A stretch of 64,000 nt of DNA from the NCBI RefSeq assembly GCF_022846255.1, contig NZ_AP025682.1; one strand, written 5' to 3'. The number at the start of each line of letters is the position of its first letter. Position 1 is the first letter of the stretch. The notes beneath the pieces were generated by a model. The model did not search any database, was not told the origin of the DNA, and saw nothing but the letters and a program-made list of their open reading frames with translations. The DNA is from Escherichia coli (lineage in GTDB: Bacteria > Pseudomonadota > Gammaproteobacteria > Enterobacterales > Enterobacteriaceae). The position numbers and the translations under genes are program-made. Shown here in pieces: positions 1,779 to 64,000 of this stretch.

Positions 1779-1800
1779 TGGTATTTCTCTAGTGTAAAGT

Positions 1801-1835
1801 GAATGATAACGTAAACGAGAATGATTATTATAAAG
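1801..1835 (-). promoter_or_regulatory. Fur-box-like iron-responsive operator in the fhuA promoter region
   Basis: Minus-strand sequence CTTTATAATAATCATTCTC (about 14/19 match to GATAATGATAATCATTATC) plus adjacent GATAAC-containing repeat, 25-55 bp upstream of fhuA ATG; fhuA is a known Fur target. Confidence 0.45.
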
Positions 1836-1997
1836 ATGAGATAATATTCGAAACGCTGGCGGGTTCGCAAGCGGTACGCAATCTGCGCATTCCTGAAGGG
1901 TCAATAAACAATCAGATGAAAAGAAAGGGTTAATACTTTGGAGGGGATGTTATTTTACCGGATGGCAGCTCGCCATCCGGTATATCACGCTTAGACG

Positions 1998-4532: not shown

Positions 4533-4625
4533 GCTTTTTCTCCGCAATATTCAGGCGCAAAAGCCCGATTTTCTGTTCTTCTGTTGCAAGACAGAAGAAG
4601 ATATCTCTCAAATTTGCTTTGGTCT

Positions 4626-11907: not shown

Positions 11908-12269
11908 TTATTATTCGTGTGAATATAAATATATTCCGAAAATAACCATAAACCATTGCAAATAATAATATAATTAATATAAATAAAAACACAGAAAATA
12001 TAATATACCTTCCCGAAATTCTAATTCCATACACCACCCCCTTAATTTTTTAAAGTTAATTTTACTAATTTTCATATTTAGTAAAATTAACTTCCATATG
12101 TCATGGCATTATGCAAAATAGCTGTCCTAATGATGAATGAATGTAATACTTAGTAAAAAACAAACAAACATCATTAACAAAGTAACGTTCAGTTACATGG
12201 CATTGCATCAAAATCTCATCATCATGCAATGCTGTTATCTGCTTTATGGAATATTACTCAAGGATTTTT
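11908..12269. promoter_or_regulatory. Strongly AT-rich leader upstream of the yad fimbrial operon (likely promoter and nucleoid-protein silencing region)
   Basis: ~360 bp of highly AT-rich sequence with A/T tracts between folK stop and yadN start, unlike the surrounding GC-balanced coding DNA. Confidence 0.4.
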
Positions 12270-12860
12270 ATGTCTAAAAAATTAGGTTTTGCGCTGTCCG
12301 GTATTATGTTGGCAATGGCTGCTGGTACTGCATTTGCTGCTAACGATATGGACGGCGGTCAATTAAATATTAGCGGTCTGGTCGTTGATAACACTTGTGA
12401 AGCTCGTGTTGATGGCGGTAACAAAGACGGTCTGATCCTGCTGCAAACCGCTACTGTTGCTGAAATTACTGATGGTGTACTGGATACCACTGTAGGCGCT
12501 AAAGCTAAACCATTCAGCATTACTATTGACTGCAGCAAAGCTAACCCGGCTCCGGGTACTACTGCAAAAATGACCTTCGGTTCTGTTTTCTTTGGTAACA
12601 GCAAAGGAACACTGAACAACGACATGTCTATTAACACCCCGTCTGACGGCGTAAATATCGCTCTGCACAATATTGAAGGTTCTACTATTAAACAGGTTCA
12701 GGTCAATAATCCGGGTGATGTTTACAGCAAAACTCTGGATTCAACGTCTAAATCTGCAACCTACGATTTTAAAGCATCCTATGTTCGTGCGGATGCAAGC
12801 AAAGCAGCTACTGCCGGTTATGTAAAAACCAACTCAGCATACACCATTACTTACCAGTAA
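12270..12860 (+). CDS. yadN: Fimbrial major subunit (chaperone-usher pilin)
   Basis: Within ORF 12246..12860; ATG 12270 preceded by AAGGA; signal peptide [23 protein letters not shown]; pilin-like C-terminus ...[10 protein letters not shown]; first gene of operon. Confidence 0.75.
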
Positions 12861-12968
12861 ATATCAACCACTTAAATTGATCGGGTGAATATATACAGGG
12901 AATAACATCAAATATTTTTACTTTTGATAATTATTCCCTGTTTTAATTAATTCTGTAAGGAATGGTTT

Positions 12969-13709
12969 ATGTTTTTTAATACTAAACATACCGCAGCATT
13001 GTGCTTAGCGAGCTGTATGGCTTTTAGCTCATCAGCTATTGCAGACATCGTAATTTCAGGTACACGCGTAGTTTATAAAAGCGAACAAAAAAGCGTCAAT
13101 GTACGTCTGGAAAATAAAGGCAATAACCCATTGCTGGTTCAGAGTTGGTTAGATACTGGAGATGATAACGCTGAACCAGGCAGTATTACTGTCCCCTTTA
13201 CCGCTACGCCGCCAGTATCACGTATTGATGCTAAACGTGGCCAAACAATCAAACTGATGTACACCGCCAGCAGTGCTCTGCCAAAAGACAGAGAAAGTGT
13301 GTTCTGGTTTAACGTACTGGAAGTACCTCCAAAACCCGATGCAGCAAAAGCAGCAAACCAAAGCCTGCTACAACTGGCATTTCGCACACGTATAAAACTG
13401 TTCTATCGCCCGGAAGGATTGAGTGGAATTTCATCTGATGCACCATTGGCTCTGAAGTGGTCCTGGGCAACATCTGAAGGCAAAGCAGCATTACGCGTTG
13501 ATAACCCTACGCCCTACTATGTCTCTTTTAGCAGTGGTGATTTAGAAGCCAATGGCAAACGCTATCCCCTGGATATGACAATGATTGCGCCGTTCAGTAA
13601 CGACGTCATCAAGGTAAATGGGATGAGTGGCAGAACAAGCTCTGCAAAAGTGCATTTTTTCGCCATTAATGATTTTGGTGGATCTATTGAAGGCAACGCC
13701 AACCTTTAA
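12969..13709 (+). CDS. yadV: Periplasmic fimbrial chaperone (PapD-like)
   Basis: ORF 12969..13709 (246 aa); signal peptide; PapD-family sequence (NPLLVQSWLD..., RESVFWFNV...). Confidence 0.8.
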   Translation: MFFNTKHTAALCLASCMAFSSSAIADIVISGTRVVYKSEQKSVNVRLENKGNNPLLVQSWLDTGDDNAEPGSITVPFTATPPVSRIDAKRGQTIKLMYTASSALPKDRESVFWFNVLEVPPKPDAAKAANQSLLQLAFRTRIKLFYRPEGLSGISSDAPLALKWSWATSEGKAALRVDNPTPYYVSFSSGDLEANGKRYPLDMTMIAPFSNDVIKVNGMSGRTSSAKVHFFAINDFGGSIEGNANL

Positions 13710-13743
13710 TCTGGCAAGGATATAACACAGCAGGAAGCAGAAC

Positions 13744-16332
13744 GTGACTATTAAATCTACTAATCACCTTACCCACATCGCCACGTTTTGCGCTCTGCTG
13801 TATAGCAATAGTGCTTTATGCGCTGAACTCGTCGAATATGACCATACATTTCTGATGGGAAAGGATGCTTCAAATATCGACCTTAGTCGGTATACAGAAG
13901 GCAACCCGACACTACCTGGCATTTACGATGTCAGTGTGTATGTTAACGATCAACCCATCATGAGCCAAAGCATTGCTTTTACTGTTATTGAAGGTAAAAA
14001 GAACGCTCAGGCCTGCATTACGCAGAAAAATTTATTGCAATTTCATATCAGTTCACCAGACAAGAATAGCGAAAAAGCCATTTTGCTTAAGCGAGACGAC
14101 GATCTTGGTGATTGCCTCAATCTGGCTGAAATGATCCCTCAATCATCCATTCGTTACGATGTTAACGATCAACGCCTGGATATCGACGTCCCCCAGGCAT
14201 GGATTATGAAGAATTATCAAAACTATGTTGATCCCTCTTTGTGGGAAAATGGCATTAATGCAGCCATGCTTTCCTACAACCTCAACGGATATCACAGTGA
14301 AAGTCCAGGCAGAACAAATGACAGTATCTACGCGGCATTCAACGGTGGGATAAACTTAGGTGCCTGGCGGTTACGTGCCTCGGGTAACTACAACTGGATG
14401 ACCAATGTCCATAGCGATTACGATTTTCAGAATCGCTATTTACAACGCGATCTTGCGTCACTACGTTCACAACTGGTTATTGGTGAATCTTACACAACCG
14501 GCGAAACCTTCGATTCAGTCAGTATTCGCGGTATTCGTTTATACAGTGACAGTCGAATGCTGCCTCCGGTATTAGCCAGTTTTGCGCCAATCATTCATGG
14601 CGTAGCGAATACCAATGCCAAAGTAACCGTTATGCAAAATGGTTATAAGATCTATGAAACGACGGTGCCGCCAGGAGCTTTTACCATTGACGATCTTAGC
14701 CCATCAGGTTATGGCAGCGATCTCATTGTGACTATCGAAGAAGCTGATGGCACAAAACGGACGTTCTCCCAGCCATTTTCATCTGTTGTGCAAATGCTGC
14801 GCCCTGGCGTTGGTCGCTGGGATATTAGCGCCGGTCAGGTTTTAAAAGACAGTATCCAGGATGAGCCTAATTTATTTCAAGCCAGCTACTACTATGGTTT
14901 GAATAACTACCTGACAGGATATACCGGTATTCAGCTAACTGATAATAACTATACCGCCGGATTGCTGGGGCTTGGTATGAATACCCCCGTGGGGGCTTTT
15001 TCTGTCGATGTTACTCACTCAAATGTCAGCATTCCGGATGATAAAACCTATCAAGGACAAAGCTACCGTATTTCCTGGAACAAGTTATTTGAAAATACCA
15101 GTACATCATTAAATATCGCGGCCTATCGCTACTCCACCCAGCATTATCTGGGCCTCAATGATGCGCTGACGCTGATTGATGAAGTAGAACATCCTGAGCA
15201 AGATCTTGAGCCTAAATCCATGCGCAATTACTCGCGCATGAAAAATCAGGTCACGGTCAGTATCAACCAACCGCTGAAATTTGAGAAAAAGGATTACGGT
15301 TCATTTTATCTCTCGGGAAGCTGGTCAGATTACTGGGCCTCCGGGCAAAACAGTACTAATTACTCTATTGGTTATAGCAATAGTGCGTCCTGGGGCAGTT
15401 ACAGTATCAGTGCTCAACGTTCGTTGAATGAAGATGGTCAAACCGACGATAGCATTTATCTCAGCTTCACGATTCCAATAGAAAATTTACTGGGTACGGA
15501 ACACCGCAGCTCCGGCTTCCAGAGTATTGATACACAATTAAACAGCGACTTTAAGGGTAATAACCAACTCAATATCAGCAGTAGTGGTTACAGCGATACC
15601 AATCGTATCAGCTACAGCGTAAACACGGGTTATATGATGAATAAATCCAGTGATGACCTGAGTTATATCGGCGGTTATGCCAGTTATGAATCGCCGTGGG
15701 GAACGCTGTCAGGTTCAGCCTCAGCAAGCAGTGATAATAGTCGCCAATTCTCACTCAATACTGATGGTGGATTTGTGTTACATAGCGGCGGGCTGACGTT
15801 CAGTAATGACAGTTTTAGTGATTCCGACGCTCTGGCTGTCATTCAGGCGCCAGGAGCAAAAGGCGCTCGTATTAACTACGGAAACAGCACCGTAGACCGC
15901 TGGGGTTATGGTGTGACCAGCGCCCTTTCGCCATACCATGAAAACCGTATCGCACTGGACATTAACGATCTGGAAAACGATGTTGAATTGAAAAGCACCA
16001 GTACTGTCGCCGTCCCGCGCCAGGGAGCCGTCGTCTTTGCTGATTTTGAAACAGTTCAGGGACAATCGGCAATTATGAATATCGTGCGAAGCGATGGTAA
16101 AAATATTCCATTTGCAGCGGATATTTATGATGAACAAAACAATATCATCGGCAACGTAGGTCAGGGTGGTCAGGCCTTTGTTCGCGGTATCGGGCAGGAA
16201 GGAAATATACGAATTACCTGGATTGAAGAGGGCAAACCAGTCAGTTGTTTTGCTCATTACCAACAAAACACGACATCAGAAAAAATAGCACAATCTATTA
16301 TTCTTAACGGGCTTCGTTGTCAGATACAGTAA
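13744..16332 (+). CDS. htrE: Fimbrial outer-membrane usher
   Basis: ORF 13744..16332 (862 aa, GTG start); usher-family sequence with C-terminal ...LNGLRCQIQ; positioned after the chaperone gene. Confidence 0.85.
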   Translation: MTIKSTNHLTHIATFCALLYSNSALCAELVEYDHTFLMGKDASNIDLSRYTEGNPTLPGIYDVSVYVNDQPIMSQSIAFTVIEGKKNAQACITQKNLLQFHISSPDKNSEKAILLKRDDDLGDCLNLAEMIPQSSIRYDVNDQRLDIDVPQAWIMKNYQNYVDPSLWENGINAAMLSYNLNGYHSESPGRTNDSIYAAFNGGINLGAWRLRASGNYNWMTNVHSDYDFQNRYLQRDLASLRSQLVIGESYTTGETFDSVSIRGIRLYSDSRMLPPVLASFAPIIHGVANTNAKVTVMQNGYKIYETTVPPGAFTIDDLSPSGYGSDLIVTIEEADGTKRTFSQPFSSVVQMLRPGVGRWDISAGQVLKDSIQDEPNLFQASYYYGLNNYLTGYTGIQLTDNNYTAGLLGLGMNTPVGAFSVDVTHSNVSIPDDKTYQGQSYRISWNKLFENTSTSLNIAAYRYSTQHYLGLNDALTLIDEVEHPEQDLEPKSMRNYSRMKNQVTVSINQPLKFEKKDYGSFYLSGSWSDYWASGQNSTNYSIGYSNSASWGSYSISAQRSLNEDGQTDDSIYLSFTIPIENLLGTEHRSSGFQSIDTQLNSDFKGNNQLNISSSGYSDTNRISYSVNTGYMMNKSSDDLSYIGGYASYESPWGTLSGSASASSDNSRQFSLNTDGGFVLHSGGLTFSNDSFSDSDALAVIQAPGAKGARINYGNSTVDRWGYGVTSALSPYHENRIALDINDLENDVELKSTSTVAVPRQGAVVFADFETVQGQSAIMNIVRSDGKNIPFAADIYDEQNNIIGNVGQGGQAFVRGIGQEGNIRITWIEEGKPVSCFAHYQQNTTSEKIAQSIILNGLRCQIQ

Positions 16333-16348
16333 CCACAAGGGACTTCCA

Positions 16349-16915
16349 ATGATAAAAATCACACCACATAAAATAACAATACTCATGGGACTATTGTTAT
16401 CGCCTTCGGTATTTGCAACGGATGTTAATGTCGATTTTACCGCTACCGTGAAAGCAACAACCTGTAATATTACACTTACCGGAACTAATGTCACTGATAA
16501 TGGAAATGATAAGTACACCTTAGTTATTCCCTCGATGGGAATGGATAAAATAGCCAATAAAACAGCACAATCTGAAGCCAACTTTAAATTGGTAGCCAAT
16601 GGATGCAGCAGTGGAATTAGCTGGATTGATACAACCCTGACAGGAAATCAATCAGGAAGTTCACCCGCGCTAATTATCCCCCTGGCCAGTGATACAACCT
16701 CCACCACAAGCTATATCGGAATGGGATTTAAAAGGAAGGCGACTTCAGGCGATACATTTCTGAAACCCAATAGCACAGAATACATACGCTGGAGTGCATC
16801 AGAAATTAGCACCGATGGACTTGAGATGACTGTCGCACTGCGTGAAACAAGTGTAGGGCAAGGTGTTCCAGGCAAGTTTCGCGCACTGGCAACTTTTAAC
16901 TTCAGCTATCAATAA
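16349..16915 (+). CDS. yadM: Fimbrial minor subunit
   Basis: ORF 16349..16915 (188 aa); AAGGGA 6 nt upstream; signal peptide; C-terminal FNFSYQ pilin-like strand. Confidence 0.7.
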   Translation: MIKITPHKITILMGLLLSPSVFATDVNVDFTATVKATTCNITLTGTNVTDNGNDKYTLVIPSMGMDKIANKTAQSEANFKLVANGCSSGISWIDTTLTGNQSGSSPALIIPLASDTTSTTSYIGMGFKRKATSGDTFLKPNSTEYIRWSASEISTDGLEMTVALRETSVGQGVPGKFRALATFNFSYQ

Positions 16916-16929
16916 CAAGGATGACAATG

Positions 16930-17535
16930 ATGATATTAAAAAAATTATGTTATGGATTATCGGGTAGTCTATTTCTGGCTTCATCACTGTTTACCATTCC
17001 TTCGCATGCAGCCACTGACAGTATTGGCCTGACTGTTACTACTGACGTAGAAATGGGTACCTGTACATCAACGTTGACTGATGACGGTACAACTAAAATT
17101 TCCACCATCAATTTCGGTGATGTATATATTTCTGAAATTAATGCCGAAACTAAAATTAAAACCTTCAAATTACAGTTCAAAGACTGTGCGGGGATTCCCG
17201 GGAAAAAGGCCAAAATAAAATTGACTCCACGAGCATTATGTGAAGGTAATTCTAATAATGGTCCTGGATTTGCTAACGCATCAACGGCAACAGCAAAAGC
17301 AGCGGCGGTCGCCGTTGAGGTCTGGAGCACATCTACGCCAGGTAAGAACGGCGCTAAACAATTCAGTTGTGTCACCCCCGCAACAGAAGAAGTCAGTATT
17401 GCTAATGCGACAGGCAGCAATGTTGTCGATTACCCAATGAGTGCGGTGTTGGTGGTCGCAAAAGATAAAACTGTCACAAATGTCACTGCGGGTGATTTCA
17501 CTGCCCCGGCAACATTCACCGTGACTTATAACTAA
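16930..17535 (+). CDS. yadL: Fimbrial minor subunit
   Basis: ORF track 16921..17535; three in-frame ATGs (16921, 16927, 16930) after AAGGA at 16916-16920; 16930 gives 201 aa; signal peptide; C-terminal FTVTYN. Confidence 0.65.
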   Translation: MILKKLCYGLSGSLFLASSLFTIPSHAATDSIGLTVTTDVEMGTCTSTLTDDGTTKISTINFGDVYISEINAETKIKTFKLQFKDCAGIPGKKAKIKLTPRALCEGNSNNGPGFANASTATAKAAAVAVEVWSTSTPGKNGAKQFSCVTPATEEVSIANATGSNVVDYPMSAVLVVAKDKTVTNVTAGDFTAPATFTVTYN

Positions 17536-17561
17536 CAGGCAGACTGATTCAGGAACTAAAT

Positions 17562-18158
17562 ATGCGTCCCACTCAACGTAATCTGATGAAAAAATCAATT
17601 CTGCTTCTGTCGTTGCTATTCAGCGCCACTTCCCCTGTGGTTGCAGGACAGAATGTTGACATTGTTGCAAATATAAAAAATAACACCTGCCAAAGTGGAA
17701 TCAGCAACAACGGAAATATTGATTTAGGTGTCGTTGGCGTGGGCGATTTTACCGGAAACATTTCAGCCGAAAATTATCACCCCGGTGGAAAAGAGTTCAC
17801 TATTACAGTACAGGACTGCACACTTCAGGGCACAGGGAATGTGTTAAATCAGTTACATATTGATTTTCGCGCACTCAGTGGCGTAATGGCGACAGGTTCC
17901 AGTCAAATATTCGCCAATGAAGACAACGCCGGGGCTAAAAATGTTGGGGTAGTTATATTTTCTATTCAGGACCCGGCAAATACCTTCAACGTTCTTGGTG
18001 CCACTGGTAGCTCACGTTCCGTTTATCCGGTCATGTCATCAGCACTAAATAATTCATCCTGGAAATTTAGTACCCGAATGCAAAAAATCGATCCGGCGCT
18101 GAATGTCACCTCTGGCCCACTGATAAGCCATGTGTTAGTGGATATCTACTACGAATAA
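17562..18158 (+). CDS. yadK: Fimbrial minor subunit
   Basis: ORF 17562..18158 (198 aa); AGGAA upstream; signal peptide; C-terminal ...HVLVDIYYE. Confidence 0.7.
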
Positions 18159-18208
18159 CAGACAAAGTGTCTGCAAGTATTATCTTGCAGCATGACAATG
18201 GAGTAAAA

Positions 18209-19471
18209 ATGAAGACATTCTTCAGATACTTTCTTTTTTTAGCACTATGCTCTTGTTGTTATACAGCAAGCGCCGGCATCGATGATCACGTCGGCTATAT
18301 TGTTGGGAATGATTACGGTGTTGGGCCTGGAGACCAAAAATGGCGTGAGGCAGGTCCCAATGGAGATGTTACCGTCAAATTCCGGTATGGATCAGGCACC
18401 AATAATTTAGTTTTTTATAAACCAACCCAACTTGGCCCAACCGGGGTGTCATTAAAATGGGAGCAGTTAGATTCCGCTTCGGGTAGAGGTTTCCTTTACT
18501 GTAACAGAAGTAGTAACTCAAGTGGCGAACCAATGTCTATTGAACATAAAATGGTTGATTCCGGTAAAAGTTATGGCGGACATAAACTCTTTGAGACATC
18601 TGTTCCAGGTCTGTATTATACATTGGCAATATCAAACATTTGGTCAGCATATACATCTACCAATATCAACTCATCAGGCATATATATTGGCGATTCTACG
18701 GACCAAACTTTTTACTGGCGTGGCGAAAGTGAGCAAACCCTATATCGGTCTTGCAACAATGCAAATACAAAAAATAAATATTGGGCCGTTGGTGGCGTTA
18801 TGCAAACGCTCACGATTGAATTTTATACCGATACCAACTTTAACCCGACAACGAATCAACGGGTAACATTGTCCAAAACAGATGGTTACCTCTACTCATT
18901 CAAAGCATATGGTGCTGGCGTTGGTATCAAGAGTTATTTTCTTAAAATCGACTTTGACCTGACAGATATCGTATTAACCAACCCCACCTGCTTTACTGCT
19001 GTACTTACCGGAAAATCAGTAAGTGGTTCGACGGTAAAAATGGGAGAATATGCACCAGGACAGATAAAAAATGGCGCGACTCCGGTTCCTTTTGATATTT
19101 CTCTCAAAAACTGTGTTCGCGTTGGCGATATAGAGACAAAGCTATCTTCAGGGAAGTTAGGTACAGAAAACAAGCAACTCCTGGGTAACACACTCACTGG
19201 AAGCGACACAGCAAAAGGCGTTGGGGTATTGATTGAAGGATTAGAAAACAGTAAAAGTGCCTTAATGATACTGAAACCTAATGATCCAAGTTCTGTTTAT
19301 AAAGATAATACGGGTCAGACTCAGGATAACGATTCAGATGCGATTTACCCGGAAGCTGACGGTATAACTTATCCACTTCATTTCCAGGCTACATTAAAAC
19401 AAGACGGTAATATTGCTATAGAACCGGGGGATTTTAAAGCCACCAGCACTTTTCAGGTTACCTACCCCTGA
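18209..19471 (+). CDS. yadC: Fimbrial tip adhesin-like subunit
   Basis: Within ORF 18167..19471; ATG 18209 after GGAG; signal peptide [22 protein letters not shown]; two-domain size (420 aa) with pilin-like C-terminus ...TSTFQVTYP. Confidence 0.7.
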
Positions 19472-45835: not shown

Positions 45836-45995
45836 GGGTTATTCCTTATCTATCTAATAACGTTGAGTTTTCTGGAACCTGTCCCATTGAACTCTCACCG
45901 GAAAGCTCAATAAGACAGGTTCTACGTTTAGTTGCCGCGCTTTTATATGCGCTTGATTTACAACATCTTCTGGATAATTTTTACCAGAAAAATCA

Positions 45996-50146: not shown

Positions 50147-51100
<954 letters not shown>

Positions 51101-51302
51101 TTGCTGACAGATTTATCCGCTCCATCGCGGGCGGATAATCTCCCCTTTCCCAACTTTCTTCGTAACGCCTCGCAAATTTCTTGTCTTTCGCTGCAACGTA
51201 ATAAAAAACTCCGGAAGCTGCTTTCCCGTTTCGTTTTTTGCCCCTCGCTTGTGCTGATGGCGTTTGCCAAAGTAGCGCCAACCAAATCAAGGAGCGAAAC
51301 AA

Positions 51303-51743
51303 ATGGACAAGCAACGCGGTTTTACACTTATCGAACTGATGGTGGTTATTGGCATCATTGCCATTTTAAGCGCCATTGGTATTCCCGCTTATCAAAACTA
51401 CCTGCGCAAAGCCGCACTCACCGACATGCTACAAACCTTTGTGCCTTACCGTACCGCCGTAGAGTTGTGCGCGCTGGAACATGGTGGATTAAATACCTGC
51501 GACGGTGGCAGCAATGGCATTCCTTCGCCTACCACCACCCGCTATGTTTCAGCCATGAGTGTGGCAAAGGGCGTGGTGTCGCTGACCGGGCAAGAAAGTC
51601 TCAATGGGCTAAGCGTCGTCATGACACCGGGTTGGGATAACGCAAACGGCGTCACCGGCTGGACGCGTAACTGCAATATTCAAAGTGACAGCGCATTGCA
51701 GCAAGCCTGCGAAGATGTCTTCCGCTTTGATGACGCCAACTAA
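51303..51743 (+). CDS. ppdD: Type IV prepilin-like protein PpdD (major pilin homolog)
   Basis: ORF 51303..51743 (146 aa); AAGGAG upstream; class III leader MDKQRGFTLIELMVVIGIIAILSAIGIPAYQNY. Confidence 0.85.
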   Translation: MDKQRGFTLIELMVVIGIIAILSAIGIPAYQNYLRKAALTDMLQTFVPYRTAVELCALEHGGLNTCDGGSNGIPSPTTTRYVSAMSVAKGVVSLTGQESLNGLSVVMTPGWDNANGVTGWTRNCNIQSDSALQQACEDVFRFDDAN

Positions 51744-51752
51744 GGAGCGGCA

Positions 51753-53138
51753 ATGAATATTCCACAGCTCACCGCCCTGTGTCTGCGTTATCAGGGAGTC
51801 TTGCTGGATGCCAGCGAAGAGGTGGTTCATGTTGCGGTAGTCGATGCACCTTCGCATGAGCTACTGGACGCATTGCATTTCGCTACCACCAAACGTATTG
51901 AGATCACCTTCTGGACGCGCCAACAAATGGAAGGTCACGCCAGTCGCACACAACAGACATTGCCCGTAGCTGTTCAGGAGAAGCATCAGCCCAAAGCAGA
52001 GTTGCTGACTCGAACGTTACAATCTGCGCTAGAACAACGCGCGTCTGATATTCATATCGAACCAGCGGACAATGCCTACCGCATCCGCTTGCGTATCGAC
52101 GGCGTATTGCATCCTTTACCGGACGTTTCACCGGATGCCGGAGTCGCATTAACCGCCAGATTAAAAGTGCTGGGAAACCTGGATATTGCGGAACATCGCC
52201 TGCCGCAGGACGGGCAATTCACTGTCGAACTGGCAGGAAACGCCGTCTCATTTCGTATTGCGACCTTAGCATGTCGGGGTGGTGAAAAGGTGGTATTAAG
52301 GTTGTTACAGCAGGTGAACCAGGCACTGGATGTTAACACGCTTGGAATGCAGCCGTCACAACTGGTGGACTTTGCTCATGCCTTGCAACAACCACAGGGA
52401 CTGGTGCTGGTAACTGGCCCTACAGGCAGCGGCAAAACGGTCACGCTTTATAGTGCCCTGCAAATGCTGAATACCGCTGACATTAATATTTGTAGCGTCG
52501 AAGATCCGGTTGAGATCCCCATAGCCGGACTAAACCAGACGCAAATCCATCCGCGTGCCGGACTCACCTTTCAGGGCGTTTTACGTGCGTTATTGCGCCA
52601 GGATCCTGACGTCATTATGATCGGAGAGATCCGCGATGGCGAAACGGCAGAAATTGCCATTAACGCCGCACAAACGGGTCATCTGGTATTGTCCACCCTA
52701 CACACCAACTCCACCTGCGAAACGCTGGTACGTTTACAGCAAATGGGAGTCGCCCGCTGGATGCTCTCATCAGCGCTTACGCTGGTAATAGCCCAGCGTC
52801 TGGTACGCAAACTTTGCCCACATTGTCGCCGACAGCAAGGGGAGCCAATCCATATTCCAGACAATGTATGGCCGTCGCCGCTGCCCCGCTGGCAAGCACC
52901 CGGTTGTGTACATTGCTACCACGGTTTTTATGGTCGCACGGCCTTATTTGAAGTTCTGCCCATAACACCGGTCATACGTCAGCTTATTTCCGCTAATACC
53001 GACGTTGAATCGCTGGAAACGCACGCCCGACAGGCGGGTATGCGAACGCTTTTTGAAAACGGCTGTCTGGCCGTGGAGCAAGGCTTAACCACCTTTGAAG
53101 AGTTAATCCGCGTATTGGGGATGCCGCATGGCGAGTAA
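51753..53138 (+). CDS. hofB: Type IV pilus assembly ATPase (PilB/GspE family)
   Basis: ORF 51753..53138 (461 aa); Walker A GPTGSGKT; tetracysteine CPHC...CVHC. Confidence 0.85.
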   Translation: MNIPQLTALCLRYQGVLLDASEEVVHVAVVDAPSHELLDALHFATTKRIEITFWTRQQMEGHASRTQQTLPVAVQEKHQPKAELLTRTLQSALEQRASDIHIEPADNAYRIRLRIDGVLHPLPDVSPDAGVALTARLKVLGNLDIAEHRLPQDGQFTVELAGNAVSFRIATLACRGGEKVVLRLLQQVNQALDVNTLGMQPSQLVDFAHALQQPQGLVLVTGPTGSGKTVTLYSALQMLNTADINICSVEDPVEIPIAGLNQTQIHPRAGLTFQGVLRALLRQDPDVIMIGEIRDGETAEIAINAAQTGHLVLSTLHTNSTCETLVRLQQMGVARWMLSSALTLVIAQRLVRKLCPHCRRQQGEPIHIPDNVWPSPLPRWQAPGCVHCYHGFYGRTALFEVLPITPVIRQLISANTDVESLETHARQAGMRTLFENGCLAVEQGLTTFEELIRVLGMPHGE

Positions 53139-54330
53139 GCAACTCTGGCGCTGGCGTGGCATAACCGGCGACGGCAATGCGCAAGATGGGATGCTATGGG
53201 CAGAGAGCCGTGCTTTGCTGCTTATGGCACTACAGCAACAGATGGTTACCCCACTAAGCCTGAAGCGAATCGCCATCAATTCTGCGCAGTGGCGAGGAGA
53301 TAAAAGCGCGGAAGTCATTCATCAACTGGCGACGCTACTCAAAGCCGGGTTAACGCTTTCTGAAGGGCTGGCACTGCTGGCGGAACAGCATCCCTGTAAG
53401 CAATGGCAAGCGTTGCTGCAATCGCTGGCACACGATCTCGAACAGGGCATTGCCTTTTCCAATGCCTTATTACCCTGGTCAGAGGTATTTCCGCCGCTCT
53501 ATCAGGCGATGATCCGCACGGGTGAACTGACCGGTAAGCTGGATGAATGCTGCTTTGAACTGGCGCGTCAACAAAAAGCCCAGCGTCAGTTGACCGACAA
53601 AGTGAAATCAGCGTTACGTTATCCCATTATCATTTTAGCGATGGCAATCATGGTGGTTGTGGCAATGCTGCATTTTGTTCTGCCGGAGTTTGCCGCTATC
53701 TATAAGACCTTTAACACTCCGCTACCGGCGCTAACGCAGGGGATCATGACGCTGGCAAGCTTTAGTGGCGAATGGGGTTGGTTGCTGGTGCTATTCGGCT
53801 TTCTGCTGGCGATAGCCAATAAGCTGCTGATGCGCCACCCAACCAGGCTTATCGCACGGCAGAAATTGCTGTTACGCATCCCGATTATGGGTTCACTGAT
53901 GCGGGGACAAAAACTCACGCAGATCTTTACGATTCTGACGCTGACACAAAGTGCAGGCATTTCTTTTTTACAGGGCGTTGAGAGCGTCAGAGAAACAATG
54001 CGCTGCCCGTACTGGGTGCAACTTCTGACACAAATCCAGCACGATATCAGTAACGGTCACTCCATCTGGCTGGCGCTAAAAAATGCCGGTGAGTTTAGCC
54101 CGCTCTGTTTGCAATTAGTGAGAACAGGAGAGGCATCCGGCTCGCTGGATCTCATGTTAGACAACCTCGCCCATCATCATCGGGATAACACAATGGCGCT
54201 GGCGGATAACCTCGCAGCCTTACTGGAACCGGCGTTGCTGATCATAACGGGAGGAATTATCGGTACGCTGGTGGTGGCAATGTATCTGCCAATTTTCCAT
54301 TTAGGCGATGCGATGAGTGGAATGGGATAA
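53128..54330 (+). CDS. hofC: Type IV pilus inner-membrane platform protein (PilC/GspF family)
   Basis: ORF 53128..54330 (400 aa); overlaps hofB 3' end by 11 nt; polytopic. Confidence 0.85.
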   Translation: MASKQLWRWRGITGDGNAQDGMLWAESRALLLMALQQQMVTPLSLKRIAINSAQWRGDKSAEVIHQLATLLKAGLTLSEGLALLAEQHPCKQWQALLQSLAHDLEQGIAFSNALLPWSEVFPPLYQAMIRTGELTGKLDECCFELARQQKAQRQLTDKVKSALRYPIIILAMAIMVVVAMLHFVLPEFAAIYKTFNTPLPALTQGIMTLASFSGEWGWLLVLFGFLLAIANKLLMRHPTRLIARQKLLLRIPIMGSLMRGQKLTQIFTILTLTQSAGISFLQGVESVRETMRCPYWVQLLTQIQHDISNGHSIWLALKNAGEFSPLCLQLVRTGEASGSLDLMLDNLAHHHRDNTMALADNLAALLEPALLIITGGIIGTLVVAMYLPIFHLGDAMSGMG

Positions 54331-54364
54331 CGCTGGCGTGTTGCTCCACGCCAGCGTTGGTATA
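54331..54364. terminator. Bidirectional intrinsic terminator between convergent hofC and guaC
   Basis: Stem CGCTGGCGTG / CACGCCAGCG (54331-54340 / 54347-54356) immediately after hofC stop, followed by TTGGTATATTA. Confidence 0.6.
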
Positions 54365-55408
54365 TTACAGGTTGTTGAAGATGCGGTTTTCTTGTTCCTG
54401 CACACGGATAAATGTGGTGCGTTTGGTCAGTTCTTTCAGGCGTGAAGCCCCAACGTATGTACAAGCTGAACGCAGGCCGCCCAAAATATCACGCGCGGTA
54501 TTTTCAACCGGGCCTCGCAGCGGCAGCTTAACGGTTTTACCTTCTGCTGCGCGATATTCCGCAACGCCGCCAACGTGACGTTTCATCGCAGACTCTGAGC
54601 TCATGCCGTAGAACAACATAAATTTCTCGCCGTTCTCCTCAACGATGCGACCGCCGCTCTCTTCGTGGCCCGCCAGCATGCCGCCAAGCATTACGAAATC
54701 GGCACCGCCGCCAAAGGCTTTCGCGACATCGCCCGGCGTGGTGCAGCCGCCATCGCTGACGATCATTCCGCCCAGACCGTGCGCAGCATCGGCACATTCG
54801 ATTACCGCAGAAAGTTGCGGATAACCGACGCCTGTTTTGACGCGAGTTGTACAAACAGAACCTGGGCCAATGCCAACTTTAACGATATCGGCACCGGAGA
54901 GGATAAGCTCCTCACACATTTCACCAGTCACTACGTTGCCAGCACAAATGGTTTTGGTCGGCCACGCTTCACGCGCTTTCGCAACGAACTGCACGAAGTG
55001 TTCGGAATAACCATTCGCCACGTCAATACAAACGAAATTTAATGCCGGGTTCAGGTCGAGAATCTGTTTAGTTTTTTCGAAATCCGCATCAGACGTGCCG
55101 GTAGAAACCATCACATGTTTCAGCACATCAGCGGAAGAATTGTTGATAAACGCTTGCCACTCTTCGACAGAATAGTGTTTATGCACAGCAGTCAGAATAT
55201 CAAAAGAAGCCAGCGCAGAGGCCATAGAAAATGTGCCTACGGTGTCCATATTTGCGGCAATAATCGGCACGCAGGACCAGCTCTGACCTGAATGTTTGAA
55301 GGTGAATTGACGTTCCAGTTCAACATCGGAACGGCTTTTAAGAGTGGAGCGTTTAGGGCGGATGAGAACGTCTTTAAAACCTAACTTCAGATCTTCTTCA
55401 ATACGCAT
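54365..55408 (-). CDS. guaC: GMP reductase
   Basis: ORF 54365..55408 (347 aa) [41 protein letters not shown]; IMPDH/GMPR fold. Confidence 0.93.
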
Positions 55409-55632
55409 GTGCGGATTCCTGGGGTTAATGGCTATAAGGGTAAGAGCGCAACTCCAGTGACGTCATCATACGCACTAATCAATGCGGCGCAAGACTGCGA
55501 AATTGTCTTTTTTTACGCTACAATCCCATAAATTTACCTGGTAAATAGTGAGCGAACGTTTCATCAATTTCGCTTTCGTGCGCTCATTTTTAACGTTTTG
55601 ATAATCATGATGAATTCCCGGGAATATAAATT

Positions 55633-56253
55633 ATGAGGTATATAGTTGCCTTAACGGGGGGCATTGGCAGTGGCAAGAGTACCGTTGCCAATGCGTTTGC
55701 TGATCTCGGAATTAACGTCATTGATGCCGATATTATTGCGCGTCAGGTGGTTGAACCAGGTGCACCTGCGCTACATGCCATTGCTGATCACTTTGGCGCT
55801 AACATGATTGCTGCTGATGGAACATTGCAGCGCCGGGCCTTGCGCGAGCGGATCTTCGCCAACCCGGAAGAGAAAAACTGGCTTAACGCCCTGCTGCATC
55901 CGCTGATTCAGCAAGAGACGCAACACCAGATCCAGCGAGCTACTTCCCCCTATGTACTATGGGTTGTGCCATTGCTGGTAGAAAACTCACTGTATAAAAA
56001 AGCGAATCGAGTGCTGGTGGTGGATGTCAGCCCAGAAACGCAACTTAAGCGCACCATGCAGCGCGACGATGTAACTCGCGAGCATGTCGAACAAATCCTT
56101 GCTGCTCAGGCAACGCGCGAAGCTCGCCTTGCCGTGGCAGATGACGTCATTGATAATAACGGCGCACCGGATGCTATCGCATCGGATGTTGCCCGCCTGC
56201 ACGCACACTATTTGCAGCTTGCGTCGCAGTTTGTCTCACAGGAAAAACCGTAA
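55633..56253 (+). CDS. coaE: Dephospho-CoA kinase
   Basis: ORF 55633..56253 (206 aa) [22 protein letters not shown] (P-loop). Confidence 0.92.
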
Positions 56254-57203: not shown

Positions 57204-57213
57204 CATTCTATCT

Positions 57214-57690
<477 letters not shown>

Positions 57691-57704: not shown

Positions 57705-57732
57705 AAAAAAGGCGCAGAATCCTGCGCCTTTT
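57705..57732 (-). terminator. Intrinsic terminator/attenuator between secA and mutT
   Basis: Stem GGCGCAG / CTGCGCC (57711-57717 / 57722-57728) flanked by AAAAAA (57705-57710) and TTTT (57729-57732); minus strand reads hairpin then TTTTTT. Confidence 0.6.
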
Positions 57733-57749
57733 ACTTCAACTGTTAGCTT

Positions 57750-60455
57750 TTATTGCAGGCGGCCATGGCACTGCTTGTATTTTTTACCAGAACCACACGG
57801 GCAAGGATCGTTACGTCCTACTTTGCGTTCACCGGTTTGCGCCGCCAGTGCAGCTGCGGCTGCAGAGTCGTCATCCTGATGGCTAAGCTGCTGCATTTGC
57901 GCTAAACGCTCGGCTTCCATACGACGCTGTTGTTCCAGCTCCTCAACCTCTTCAGGCATACGTACCTGAACTTTGCTCAGCGTGCTGATAACTTCATATT
58001 TTAACGACTCCAGCATCGCTGCAAACATGGAGAACGATTCACGTTTGTATTCCTGCTTCGGATCTTTCTGTGCATAGCCACGCAGGTGGATACCCTGACG
58101 CAGATAGTCCATCGCAGCCAGGTGCTCTTTCCACAGAGAGTCAAGCGTTTGCAGCATGACGCCTTTCTCGAAGTGACGCATCATCTCAGCACCAACCACT
58201 TCTTCTTTACGCTGATACACTTCGATGGACTGTGCCAGAATGCGCTCACGCAGCGTCTCTTCATGCAGTTCTGGTTCTTTATCCAGCCACTCGGCAATTG
58301 GCAAATCGAGGTCGAAATCGTTCTTCAGACGTTCCTGCAGCCCCGGAATATCCCACATTTCTTCCAGCGACTGTGGCGGAATGTAGGCATCAATGGTGGC
58401 TTTGAACACATCTTCACGAATGCTGTTGATGGTTTCGCTCACATCGCTGACATCCAGCAGTTCGTTACGCTGGGAGTAAATGGCGCGACGCTGATCGTTA
58501 GCCACGTCATCATATTCCAGCAGTTGCTTACGAATGTCGAAGTTACGGCTTTCAACTTTACGCTGGGCGTTGGCAATCGCTTTGGTCACCCACGGGTGCT
58601 CAATGGCTTCGCCTGGCTTCATACCCAGTTTACGCATCATGCCGGATACTCGGTCGGAAGCAAAAATACGCATCAGCGCATCTTCCATCGACAGGTAGAA
58701 ACGGGAAGAACCAGCATCCCCCTGACGACCAGAACGACCGCGCAGCTGGTTATCGATACGACGGGATTCGTGACGTTCAGTACCGATGATATGCAGGCCA
58801 CCTGCTGCCAGTACCGCATCGTGACGTACCTGCCAGTCGGCTTTAATTTTTTCAATTTGCTCTGCAGTCGGATTTTCCAGCGCGGCAACTTCTGCCTGCC
58901 AGCTACCACCGAGCACAATATCGGTACCACGACCCGCCATGTTGGTCGCGATAGTCACCGCAGCCGGGTAACCTGCCTGAGCAACAATCGCCGCTTCGTT
59001 GGCATGGAATTTGGCGTTCAGGACGTTGTGCTTAATACCGGCTTTGGTCAGTTCATTTGACACCAGCTCCGATTTTTCGATGGAGATTGTACCCACCAGC
59101 ACCGGCTGGCCTTTCGCAGTACGTTCTTTGATATCTTCAATGATCGCCTGAATTTTTTCCGCTTCAGTCATGTAGACCAGGTCCGGCAAATCTTTACGAA
59201 TCATTGGACGGTTGGTCGGAACAACGACAGTATCCAGCTTATAGATGGAGCTGAATTCGAAAGCTTCGGTATCAGCAGTACCAGTCATCCCCGCCAGTTT
59301 TTCATACAGACGGAAGTAGTTCTGGAAGGTGATCGAAGCCAGCGTTTGGTTTTCGTTCTGGATCTGCACACCTTCTTTCGCTTCCACAGCCTGGTGCAGA
59401 CCATCGGACCAGCGACGGCCCTGCATGGTACGACCGGTGTGTTCGTCAACGATGATAACTTCACCATCTTTAACGATGTAGTCGACGTCGCGGGTAAACA
59501 GCGCATGAGCGCGCAGCGCCGCCGTTACGTGGTGCATCAGCATGATGTTGGCCGGAGAGTACAGAGACTCACCTTCATCCATGATGCCTTCTTTAACCAG
59601 CAGTTCTTCAATCAGAACCAGACCACGTTCGGTCAGGTTCACCTGGCGAGATTTTTCATCCACCGAGAAGTGGCCTTCGCCCTGGAAGGTTTCGGAGTCT
59701 TCTTTTTCCTGACGGATCAGGTGCGGAATAATTTTATTCACGCGTTTATACATTTCCGAGCTGTCTTCTGCTGGGCCGGAAATGATCAGCGGTGTACGCG
59801 CTTCATCGATGAGGATGGAGTCCACTTCGTCCACCAGCGCATAGTGCAGTTTACGTTGTACACGTTCTTCAGGGCTGAATGCCATGTTGTCGCGCAGGTA
59901 GTCAAAGCCGTATTCGTTGTTCGTACCGTAAGTGATGTCAGCAGCGTAGGCTTCACGCTTTGCCGGTGCTGGCATGCCCGGTAGGTTGATACCGACAGTC
60001 AGGCCAAGGAATTCAAACAGCGGACGGTTGTTTTCGGCGTCACGTTGCGCCAGGTAGTCGTTGACGGTAACTACGTGTACGCCTTTACCGGTTAGTGCGT
60101 TCAGGTAAGCAGGCAGCGTTGCGGTCAGGGTTTTACCTTCACCGGTACGCATTTCGGCGATGCAGCGTTCGTTAAGAACCATACCGCCGAGTAACTGAAC
60201 GTCGAAGTGACGCATGCCAAAGACGCGCTTACTTGCCTCACGCACCACGGCGAAAGCTTCCGGGATCAGATTTTCCAGCACTTCGCCTTTTTCCAGACGC
60301 GCACGAAACTCTGCGGTTTTCCCTTTCAGTTCTTCGTCGGAGAGTTTTTCCATCTCCGGTTCCATGGCATTGATGATGTTGACCACTTTGCGCATCCGGC
60401 GCAGGGTGCGATCGTTACGACTACCGAAAACTTTAGTTAATAATTTGATTAGCAT
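57750..60455 (-). CDS. secA: Protein translocase ATPase SecA
   Basis: ORF 57750..60455 (901 aa) [25 protein letters not shown]; C-terminal zinc-binding [17 protein letters not shown]. Confidence 0.96.
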
Positions 60456-62277: not shown

Positions 62278-63429
62278 TTAATCAGCTTGCTTACGCAGGA
62301 ATGCTGGGATATCCAGATAATCCGGCTCTTTCGCAGTTTGCGGCGCATTGTCATTCACGACTTTAGCAACCGGCTTCTGCTCCTGGGTCAGCGGAGCCAT
62401 ACCGTGCTGCTGGTAGCGATCCATCACTGGCTGCTGAACCTGCTTATTGGTCACCAGAGTGATTTCAGGACGTTTGTCCATGCCGATACCTGTCGCAACA
62501 ACAGTTACGCGCAGTTCGTCATTCATATCCGGGTCAAGAGAAGTACCGATAACCACGGTCGCGTTGTCGGAAGCAAATGCACGGATGGTGTTACCTACCG
62601 TTTCGAACTCATCCAGACGCAGGTCGAAGCCCGCTGTGATGTTTACCAGTACGCCGCGTGCGCCAGACAGGTCGATATCTTCCAGCAGCGGAGAAGAGAT
62701 AGCCATTTCAGCAGCTTCTTCCGCACGGTCTTCACCGCTCGCCACGCCAGAACCCATCATTGCGTAGCCCATTTCAGACATTACGGTGCGTACGTCTGCA
62801 AAGTCCACGTTCATCAAACCCGGACGAGTAATCAGTTCGGCGATACCTTGCACAGCGCCTTTCAGTACATCGTTCGCTGCGCCAAACGCATCCAGCAGGG
62901 AGATACCACGGCCCAGAACTTTCAGCAGTTTGTCGTTCGGGATAGTGATCAGAGAGTCCACATGCTTGGACAGTTCAGTGATCCCCTGCTCCGCGAATGC
63001 CATACGCTTCTTGCCTTCAAAGTTGAAGGGCTTAGTGACGACAGCAACGGTCAGGATACCCAAATCTTTTGCCACTTCAGCGACGACTGGTGCTGCACCT
63101 GTACCGGTACCACCACCCATACCCGCAGCAATAAAGACCATGTCTGCACCTTCCAGCGCCGCACGCAGTGCATCGCGATCCTCATCAGCCGCATTGCGGC
63201 CAACTTCTGGATTAGCGCCAGCTCCCAGTCCTTTGGTGATACCGCTACCGATTTGAATCGTCTGTCCAACCGCTGTTTTACGCAGCGCTTGTGCATCGGT
63301 ATTTACCGCGAAGAATTCAACACCTTCAATGCGCTCGCGCACCATGTGTTCAACAGCATTACCGCCGCCGCCGCCGACGCCGATGACTTTAATCACCGCG
63401 TCATTGGTAAGTTCCATTGGTTCAAACAT
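62278..63429 (-). CDS. ftsZ: Cell division GTPase FtsZ
   Basis: ORF 62278..63429 (383 aa) [30 protein letters not shown]; tubulin signature [10 protein letters not shown]; C-terminal [14 protein letters not shown]. Confidence 0.96.
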
Positions 63430-63489
63430 AGTTTCTCTCCGATTTGTGCCTGTCGCCTGAGGCCGTAATCATCGTCGGCCTCATAAAAA

Positions 63490-64000
63490 TTAAAACTCTT
63501 TTCGCAGCCAACTATTGAGTCGCTTGATCCACGAGCCAACTGATGCTGTAACACGTTTTTCTACTTCAGCTTCACCGTTAAGATGTGACTCTTTCCCGTA
63601 ATGAAGCAATCCCACCGCCGTCGAATAATACGGCTCCTGAGCATAATCCGTTAAACCGGTAATGTTCAGCGGCGCGCCGATACGCACCTGCGTATGAAAC
63701 ACGCGCTGAGCACAGGCTGCAAGACCTTCGATCTGCGCTGCGCCACCGGTTAATACAATGCCTGCCGCCAGGTGATGTTTAACCCCTTGTTGGCGAAGCT
63801 TTTCCTGCAACTGCAATATCTCTTCGTTGACCAGATTGAGCAGCTCGGTATAGCGCGGCTCGATCACCTCTGCCAGGGTCTGACGTTGCAGACTCCGCGG
63901 CGGACGACCGCCTACGCTCGGCACTTCCACGCTCTCATCTTTTCCAACGATGGAGCCCAGCGCACAACCGTGGCGAACTTTAATCGCTTCGGCGTCACTT
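63490..64000 (-). CDS. ftsA: Cell division protein FtsA, C-terminal ~170 codons (5' part lies beyond the right window edge)
   Basis: Minus-strand frame open from the window end to stop at 63490; C-terminus ...VGSWIKRLNSWLRKEF (membrane-targeting amphipathic helix). Confidence 0.9.
   Translation of the reverse strand, partial: SDAEAIKVRHGCALGSIVGKDESVEVPSVGGRPPRSLQRQTLAEVIEPRYTELLNLVNEEILQLQEKLRQQGVKHHLAAGIVLTGGAAQIEGLAACAQRVFHTQVRIGAPLNITGLTDYAQEPYYSTAVGLLHYGKESHLNGEAEVEKRVTASVGSWIKRLNSWLRKEF

Follow-up and report, generated by a model that had tools for sequence, protein, structure and literature searches.

The ppdD-hofB-hofC (hcpABC) locus in an Escherichia coli genome: an intact and already known operon

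The three genes described here almost certainly make up ppdD-hofB-hofC (hcpABC), an operon of the E. coli core genome that supplies 3 of the ~13 parts of a type IVa pilus or DNA-uptake machine, and nothing in the present analysis contradicts this identification. Descriptions of the locus, of its structure and regulation and of its distant partners go back more than two decades, and both a reconstitution and a solved structure of the pilus are available. The locus in this strain is already known, intact and ordinary; it is no discovery and carries little weight as one. What is gained is a clean annotation: all three genes are intact in a strain whose E. coli lineage is somewhat divergent.

The operon and its pilin

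The window, a stretch of DNA of 64,000 nucleotides, is colinear with the part of the E. coli K-12 genome that runs from about 169.2 kb down to 104.9 kb, and nadC and guaC flank the locus as they do in K-12. The gene span given by the first-pass annotation, 51303-54330, matches exactly three same-strand frames in the list of open reading frames (Table 1). The tight coupling it described is likewise borne out by the coordinates: ppdD and hofB lie 9 nt apart, whereas hofB and hofC overlap by 11 nt (53128-53138), and this spacing and overlap suggest that the three genes are translationally coupled. NCBIfam has an equivalog model for each of the three products, and each product scores above the curated cut-off of that model. 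An Rfam scan of the whole window at gathering thresholds placed no known RNA family in 51101-54364, and a repeat search over 50900-55700 returned only short pairs at chance level.

Table 1. Features of the ppdD-hofB-hofC locus, in window coordinates
Feature	Position	Strand	Size or description	Basis
nadC-ppdD intergenic region (operon control region)	51101-51302	+	202 nt	
Best candidate CRP-S site, TTCTTCGTAACGCCTCGCAAAT	51156-51177		C6/G17; 8/10 core positions	inferred
ppdD	51303-51743	+	146 aa	ORF list
hofB	51753-53138	+	461 aa	ORF list
hofC	53128-54330	+	400 aa	ORF list
GC-rich inverted repeat, ACGCTGGCGTG-TTGCTC-CACGCCAGCGT	54331-54358		within the 34 nt that separate the convergent stop codons of hofC and guaC	

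The first gene, ppdD, is also named hcpA. Its product begins with the six-residue leader MDKQRG followed by FTLIELMVVIGIIAILSAIGIPAY, so that the mature protein starts with FTLIE and has Gly at -1, Phe at +1 and Glu at +5; a short basic leader ending in Gly, with Phe+1 and Glu+5 inside a hydrophobic helix of ~20 residues, marks a type IVa pilin with a class III signal peptide, and PpdD shows these features. PpdD scores 269 bits on its equivalog model NF007862 (cut-off 138), carries the Pfam N_methyl domain (E=2.5e-10) and lies above the cut-offs of both TIGR02532 and PF07963. It is near-identical to two PDB chains, 6gv9_A (E=1.5e-90) and 6gms_A (E=6e-75), both with the molecule name 'Prepilin peptidase-dependent protein D', which we take to be the assembled EHEC pilus and the soluble head of PpdD, respectively. 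Residue 1 of 6gv9_A aligns to residue 7 of the precursor, placing the start of the mature pilin at F7. Through these matches PpdD also has the globular alpha-beta head of a type IV pilin, the C-terminal disulfide-bonded D-region and the assembly into a fibre; its cysteines are a Cys56/Cys66 pair and two further residues near the C-terminus. Relative to K-12 it has one substitution, D64N, and it is identical to its counterpart in strain A37.

Control region, 3' hairpin and distant partners

Regulation by CRP-cAMP and by competence-inducing conditions, which the first-pass annotation had proposed to test, has already been published for K-12: induction of ppdD by Sxy is 90-fold and strictly requires CRP and cAMP, and CRP shifts a ppdD promoter fragment (PMC1635313). 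A scan for promoter-like sites detected no sigma-70 consensus promoter in 51101-51302, which fits such a dependence on an activator. The nadC-ppdD region has a mean column identity of 98% in an alignment of the window, K-12 and A37. When the published primers are placed on the sequence, the equivalent of the CRP-binding EMSA fragment falls at about 51090-51222, and a scan with the TGCGA-N6-TCGCA-like consensus (C6/G17) puts the best candidate CRP-S site inside it. This candidate is identical in K-12 and A37. Taken by itself, its core match is no better than chance, since the window contains 23 comparable sites. The 15-mer TTCTTCGnnACGCCT occurs once in the window and is shared with the K-12 ppdA promoter. 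A terminator-like match at 51212-51228, which lies past the candidate CRP-S site and ahead of ppdD, was considered as a leader attenuator or nadC terminator and rejected: its folding energy is -5.6 to -10.4 kcal/mol (z +0.4 to -0.9), and K-12 shows no conservation of its stem.

At the other end, the operon had been said to stop at a strong bidirectional terminator shared with guaC. A strong and conserved hairpin is there: it has a 12-13-bp GC-rich stem, folds with -25.3 kcal/mol on the + strand (z -4.1) and -23.9 kcal/mol on the - strand (z -5.9), and both K-12 and A37 have the identical stem and loop. Its description as a strong bidirectional terminator is overstated. Neither tail (TGGTATATTA on +, TATCCCATTC on -) contains a T-run, the K-12 tails contain even fewer T, and a scan for consensus terminators, for want of a T-run, did not place 54331-54358 among its terminator-like sites. 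The U-tract of an intrinsic (Rho-independent) bidirectional terminator is thus missing on both strands, which leaves a terminator role unproven, and the literature offered nothing specific on mapped bidirectional terminators naming guaC. To judge from the sequence, the hairpin is likely a 3'-end element of both the hofC and the guaC transcripts, and it would most probably define or stabilize the 3' ends of these convergent messages. It is best recorded as a conserved hairpin of putative function.

The statement that the window holds no prepilin peptidase, secretin or other assembly genes is upheld, and it extends to the alignment-complex and minor-pilin genes: tblastn with HofM/N/O/P/Q, PpdA/B/C, YgdB, GspO and PppA of K-12 found no gene for any of them in the window, the sole match being that of the PpdA N-terminus to ppdD itself. 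The accompanying claim of dependence on distant loci agrees with the arrangement in E. coli, where hofMNOPQ, ppdAB-ygdB-ppdC, gspO and pppA lie far off. Both hofMNOPQ and ppdAB-ygdB-ppdC occur in 5425 of the 5426 complete E. coli genomes; neither peptidase gene is universal, gspO being found in 3158 (58%) and pppA in 3640 (67%) of them. From these species-wide frequencies we infer that a prepilin peptidase and hofMNOPQ are present in this strain. Since the core genes of the pilus are universal and gspO and pppA are accessory, there might be lineages, possibly including this one, that lack both peptidases and yet keep ppdD-hofBC under purifying selection, which would point to an unrecognized peptidase or to a peptidase-independent role of these genes; and the hairpin, despite its missing U-tract, might truly terminate transcription in both directions through a non-canonical mechanism, such as the collision of convergent polymerases. 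We consider these readings improbable.

Conservation, expression and proposed assembly

The locus is found in its nadC/guaC context in 5423 of the 5426 complete genomes, and comparison with K-12 revealed no frameshift, premature stop, pseudogenization or strain-specific insertion in it. All three genes are under purifying selection, with dN/dS values relative to K-12 of 0.15 for ppdD, 0.08 for hofB and 0.20 for hofC. The values for ppdD and hofC exceed those of the housekeeping neighbours guaC, zapD, nadC and coaE (0.02-0.06; ampD, though, also stands at 0.15), as might be expected if ppdD-hofBC were an evolutionary relic, the decaying remnant of a non-functional pilus. Such a reading could also draw on the silence of the operon under standard conditions, where any ECOR strain needs artificial induction of sxy to make PpdD (PMC3330819), and on the failure of electron microscopy to detect pili in UPEC (PMC2649431). 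Yet the three frames are full length with their motifs intact, their dN/dS values are well under 1, the locus is retained nearly throughout the species, and its strong inducibility is accompanied by the production of processed pilin and of pili. A relic is therefore very unlikely, and the published assembly of the pilus has already largely refuted it.

A functional pilus operon that is silent in ordinary culture is the reading that we prefer. It is turned on when the competence co-activator Sxy (TfoX) aids CRP-cAMP at a CRP-S site, weak and non-canonical, that lies between nadC and ppdD. Processed PpdD appears in K-12 upon sxy induction (PMC3330819), and EHEC ppdD-hofBC brings PpdD to the surface of K-12 cells (PMC2649431). 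EHEC grown on minimal casein medium assembles PpdD into adhesive 'haemorrhagic coli pili', and the HCP pili that EDL933 forms on Minca medium are composed of HcpA, that is, PpdD (PMC2920817). Moreover, the pilus has been rebuilt from a 13-gene parts list with assigned roles (bioRxiv 10.1101/856302). [quoted passage not shown]

From what is known of the family, the PpdD prepilin would enter the inner membrane, and a peptidase encoded elsewhere (GspO or PppA) would cut it after Gly6 and N-methylate Phe7. Hydrolysis of ATP by a HofB hexamer would then drive the HofC platform, held by HofM-N-O-P, and pilins would be added to the fibre.

HofB, HofC and related type IVa systems

HofB belongs to the family of GspE/PilB hexameric assembly ATPases (NF007755, 818 bits, cut-off 617). 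Its T2SSE domain (PF00437) covers model positions 2-370 of 370 (E=7.9e-145), and Pfam assigns residues 8-69 to an incomplete MshEN domain. It carries Walker A GPTGSGKT (222), DPDVIMIGEIRD (284), the His box GHLVLSTLHTN (309) and two CxxC (355 and 385), so that the Walker A, Asp/Walker B, His box and tetracysteine motifs of a GspE/PilB secretion ATPase are all present along with a full-length T2SSE domain. Among solved structures, HofB is closest to PilB (6olj/5tsg, about 350 bits) and EpsE (1p9r/4kss, about 333 bits). On TIGR02538, the model for PilB proper, HofB reaches 479.7 bits, below the cut-off of 675.65 and over model positions 165-561 only; for this reason it is filed under its own equivalog, NF007755, although it works like PilB. 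RefSeq (PGAP) names the product 'type II secretion system protein GspE', a database name that should not be taken to mean a function in type II secretion. HofC falls in the GspF/PilC family of polytopic inner-membrane platforms (NF007861, 651 bits, cut-off 401): it is a polytopic membrane protein of the usual ~400 aa with two T2SSF repeats (PF00482, two stretches, E=1.6e-56), and it matches M. xanthus PilC, 3jc8_Ca, with E=1.6e-43.

The domain searches (Pfam N_methyl/Pilin, T2SSE and two T2SSF) agree with the earlier assignment of a pilin, a PilB-type ATPase and a PilC-type platform as far as the gene families go; the finer distinction between PilB/PilC-type and GspE/GspF-type proteins is not separable from sequence alone, and what ties the genes to a type IV pilus is the pilin encoded next to them, the hofMNOPQ operon, which is pilMNOPQ-like and lies at a distance, and the published experiments. 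It is exceedingly unlikely that HofB and HofC instead serve protein secretion as a GspE/GspF pair: the RefSeq name, the preference of HofC for the GspF model, on which it reaches 266 bits against about 200 bits on the PilC models, and, according to work cited in PMC2649431, the ability of the Klebsiella Pul type II system to assemble PpdD are outweighed by scores that miss the equivalog cut-offs of GspE (453 versus 630 bits) and GspF (266 versus 424 bits) in proteins with equivalog models of their own, by a shared operon with a true type IVa pilin of solved pilus structure, by partners that are the PilMNOPQ-like HofMNOPQ and not GspC/L/M, and by the separate gsp and ygh type II clusters that E. 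coli carries.

As a type IVa pilus operon, ppdD-hofB-hofC resembles pilA-pilB-pilC(-pilD) of P. aeruginosa and M. xanthus in its short-leader pilin with G-1/F+1/E+5, its PilB-like extension ATPase and its PilC-like platform, as well as in having the pilMNOPQ-like partner operon located elsewhere. It differs from them in lacking a linked pilD and a retraction ATPase, and in its co-directional, tightly packed genes under Sxy/CRP-S control. HofB is also shorter, by about 105-125 residues, than PilB proteins of solved structure (566-588 aa), and it aligns only from residue ~75, to PilB from ~200 onward. The H. influenzae pilABCD operon has an orthologous pilin, ATPase and platform and a CRP-S promoter that needs Sxy (PMC1635313); there, however, the peptidase gene pilD lies inside the operon and the organism is naturally transformable, whereas E. 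coli encodes its peptidases within type II secretion clusters and is not known to be transformable (PMC3330819). The K-12 operon ppdD-hofB-hofC (b0108-b0106), equivalent to hcpABC, the haemorrhagic coli pilus operon of EHEC, is the same as the present one in its genes, their order, the product lengths of 146/461/400 aa, the 11-nt overlap, the nadC/guaC flanks, the upstream region and the downstream hairpin. The locus DNA is about 97.6% identical to that of K-12, and its highest identity among the 5426 complete RefSeq genomes is 98.8%; the differences from K-12 are allelic only: 1, 9 and 14 amino-acid substitutions in PpdD, HofB and HofC, respectively, all of which leave the catalytic motifs untouched.

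Gene layout and family placement

The genes ppdD, hofB and hofC lie in tandem on the plus strand (table), with 9 nt between ppdD and hofB and 11 nt (53128-53138) shared by hofB and hofC; the gene coordinates and the overlap reported in the first-pass annotation match the ORF list exactly. That annotation had also described a cryptic type IV pilus gene set and had made this depend on domain searches, which support the pilin, T2SSE and T2SSF families alike. All three proteins pass the curated cut-offs of the NCBIfam equivalog models made for them.

The class III leader claimed for the prepilin is borne out. The N-terminus of PpdD, MDKQRG/FTLIELMVV, carries Gly, Phe and Glu at positions -1, +1 and +5 and is the textbook class III prepilin signal. 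The protein matches the Pfam N_methyl family (E=2.5e-10; the Pilin match is borderline) and the NCBIfam equivalog 'prepilin peptidase-dependent pilin' (269 bits, cut-off 138). PpdD itself is the protein in PDB entries 6GV9 and 6GMS; the structure chain begins at precursor residue 7, which fixes the cleavage site after Gly6.

HofB gives a full-length match to T2SSE (E=7.9e-145) and a partial one to the MshEN N-domain, and it retains the Walker A motif, the Asp/Walker B box, the His box and both CxxC pairs. It scores 818 bits with its own equivalog, PRK10436 (cut-off 617), but falls below the NCBIfam equivalog cut-offs for both PilB (480 against 676) and GspE (453 against 630); the nearest solved structures are Geobacter PilB (~350 bits) and EpsE (~333 bits). 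HofC carries two T2SSF repeats (E=1.6e-56) and scores 651 bits with 'protein transport protein HofC' (cut-off 401). It scores higher with the NCBIfam GspF model than with the narrow PilC models, and its nearest solved structure is M. xanthus PilC. The labels 'PilB-type' and 'PilC-type' therefore hold as functional analogy, but not as assignment to those subfamilies in the strict sense. 'GspE', the product name that RefSeq gives to HofB, is just as loose as 'PilB-type'.

Features of the window and partner genes in K-12 (L006 and L007 are the K-12 loci holding gspO and pppA)
Feature	Position	Strand	Basis
ppdD	51303-51743	+	ORF list, 146 aa
hofB	51753-53138	+	ORF list, 461 aa
hofC	53128-54330	+	ORF list, 400 aa
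PssrA	63421-63510	-	Rfam gathering score, 105 bits
tp2	45838-45951	+	Rfam gathering score, 104 bits
STnc40	57705-57774	-	Rfam gathering score, 83 bits
ES036	39775-39817	-	Rfam gathering score, 38 bits, borderline
hofMNOPQ	K-12 3.52 Mb		match in 5425/5426 complete E. coli genomes
ppdAB-ygdB-ppdC	K-12 2.96 Mb		match in 5425/5426 complete E. coli genomes
gspO	K-12 3.47 Mb; L006 2544-3221		match in 3158/5426 complete E. coli genomes at megablast sensitivity
pppA	K-12 3.11 Mb; L007 3544-4353		match in 3640/5426 complete E. coli genomes at megablast sensitivity

Conservation of the locus and its surroundings

The segment 51101-54364 was matched in 5424 of the 5426 complete E. coli genomes (at least 80% covered in 5423), where it is annotated as ppdD, gspE (hofB) and hofC. 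The gene order, ampE-ampD, nadC, ppdD-hofB-hofC, guaC, yacM, coaE, zapD, yacG, mutT, has the K-12 neighbours in inverted orientation, and the entire window runs colinear with the K-12 stretch from ~169.2 down to 104.9 kb. The highest identity of the locus within this collection is 98.8%, yet the exact HofB and HofC sequences are found in NCBI E. coli records (BDH34819/BDH34820), so the source is an E. coli lineage with little representation in the RefSeq complete set. PpdD, HofB and HofC differ from their K-12 counterparts by 1, 9 and 14 amino acids, with lengths unchanged. Nei-Gojobori dN/dS is 0.15 for ppdD, 0.08 for hofB and 0.20 for hofC, compared with 0.02-0.06 for guaC, nadC, coaE and zapD and 0.15 for ampD; judged by these ratios, the three genes are kept by selection, somewhat less stringent than that on their housekeeping neighbours. 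Among these neighbours, NadC ends in Cys and a TGA stop versus Arg and TAA in K-12 (R297C, 51098-51100), and GuaC has a strain-specific G46C change (55271-55273).

Between the stop codons of the convergent genes hofC and guaC lies a 34-nt spacer, which contains ACGCTGGCGTG-TTGCTC-CACGCCAGCGT. The RNA fold of this hairpin reaches -25.3 kcal/mol on the plus strand and -23.9 kcal/mol on the minus strand, beating 200/200 shuffles, and neither stem nor loop differs in K-12 or A37. Such a strong, conserved hairpin would be well placed to end or stabilise the hofC and guaC messages. It had been called a 'strong bidirectional terminator'; however, the defining U-tract is absent on both strands (plus tail UGGUAUAUUA, K-12 UGGGAGAUUA; minus tail UAUCCCAUUC), and the hairpin is not in the terminator list of the consensus scan, so that the call was an over-confident inference.

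Elsewhere in the window, the yad chaperone-usher fimbrial operon (yadN-yadC, 12246-19001) shows 79.7% identity to K-12 and 79 gap openings, and its yadC adhesin end (18267-19001) has no K-12 alignment; since its flanks are 95-96% identical, yad is a strongly divergent fimbrial allele. The fhuA-mrcB end (7-4616; 91.9% identity to K-12, 35 gap openings) is also far more diverged than the remainder, as expected for FhuA, a phage and colicin receptor. The yacG-mutT spacer (57204-57291) measures 88 nt versus ~203-215 nt in A37 and K-12, and the BLAST alignment to both breaks at a single Rfam unit of the REP-derived naRNA4 (57225-57301); the difference resembles a copy-number polymorphism of REP units. 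At the aceF internal repeat (42577-43136), the BLAST matches to K-12 and A37 run over one another and are doubled; the repeat reflects the lipoyl-domain repeats, ordinary for an E2 gene. PssrA, tp2, STnc40 and ES036 have no connection with the pilus locus; within the locus, Rfam gave no match and the repeat search nothing meaningful.

A candidate control element upstream of ppdD

No sigma-70-like promoter was picked up by the consensus scan in the 202 nt between nadC and ppdD, as fits a promoter that depends on an activator. A terminator-like match at 51212-51228 was dropped, being neither a stable nor a conserved structure. The upstream region aligns among the window, K-12 and A37 with a mean column identity of 98%. 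CRP causes a weak but specific shift of a ppdD promoter fragment, and ppdD mRNA rises 90-fold on Sxy induction, with CRP and cAMP required (Cameron and Redfield, PMC1635313). The primers of that study fall at ~51090-51222, where the best CRP-S-like 22-mer (51156-51177, TTCTTCGTAACGCCTCGCAAAT) has 8/10 core positions, the diagnostic C6 and G17 among them; as the window holds 23 matches of equal quality, this core match alone proves nothing.

The ppdA gene belongs to another operon of the same pilus machine. The 15-mer TTCTTCGnnACGCCT, which occurs only once when both strands of the 64-kb window are counted, is also present upstream of K-12 ppdA, and the two promoters have a second common block, CTGCAACG, in register 20 nt beyond it. 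Window positions 51156-51198 agree with the K-12 ppdA upstream region (locus L005, ~4758-4800, minus strand) at 27/43 positions, ungapped; the 15-mer was not found upstream of hofM. The 15-mer may indicate where the Sxy/CRP-S control element of the ppdD and ppdA operons lies. Processed PpdD has been seen on sxy induction and in 0/72 ECOR strains without it, and E. coli was not transformed under any condition tried (Sinha and Redfield, PMC3330819).

Partner genes and the known pilus

The system was said to be incomplete in the window and reliant on distant loci, and both statements hold. With K-12 HofM/N/O/P/Q, PpdA/B/C, YgdB, GspO and PppA as queries, tblastn returned only noise in the window, save for the PpdA N-terminus on ppdD, and the K-12 partners lie at 2.96-3.52 Mb. 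Both E. coli prepilin peptidase genes, gspO and pppA, are accessory, and the pilus core operons are present in at least 5423 of 5426 genomes; the prepilin peptidase is the sole part of the system whose presence is not guaranteed. The first observation is thus confirmed and its interpretation supported, except for the terminator call.

The mechanism envisaged draws on the papers cited here and on general knowledge of type IVa pili: PpdD would be cleaved and then methylated by a prepilin peptidase, its polymerisation would be primed by the minor pilins, driven by HofB and mediated by HofC, and the pilus would leave via HofQ. Pili have been built in E. coli with twelve genes (hofBC, hofMNOPQ, ppdAB-ygdB-ppdC, gspO) plus a pilin gene (bioRxiv 10.1101/856302), and K-12 expressing EHEC ppdD-hofBC displays PpdD at the surface (PMC2649431). 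In EHEC EDL933, hcpA (ppdD) makes the haemorrhagic coli pilus on Minca medium, and this pilus acts in adherence, invasion, biofilm formation and twitching motility (PMC2920817). Without unusual property in this strain, ppdD-hofB-hofC is a textbook E. coli locus, already characterised.
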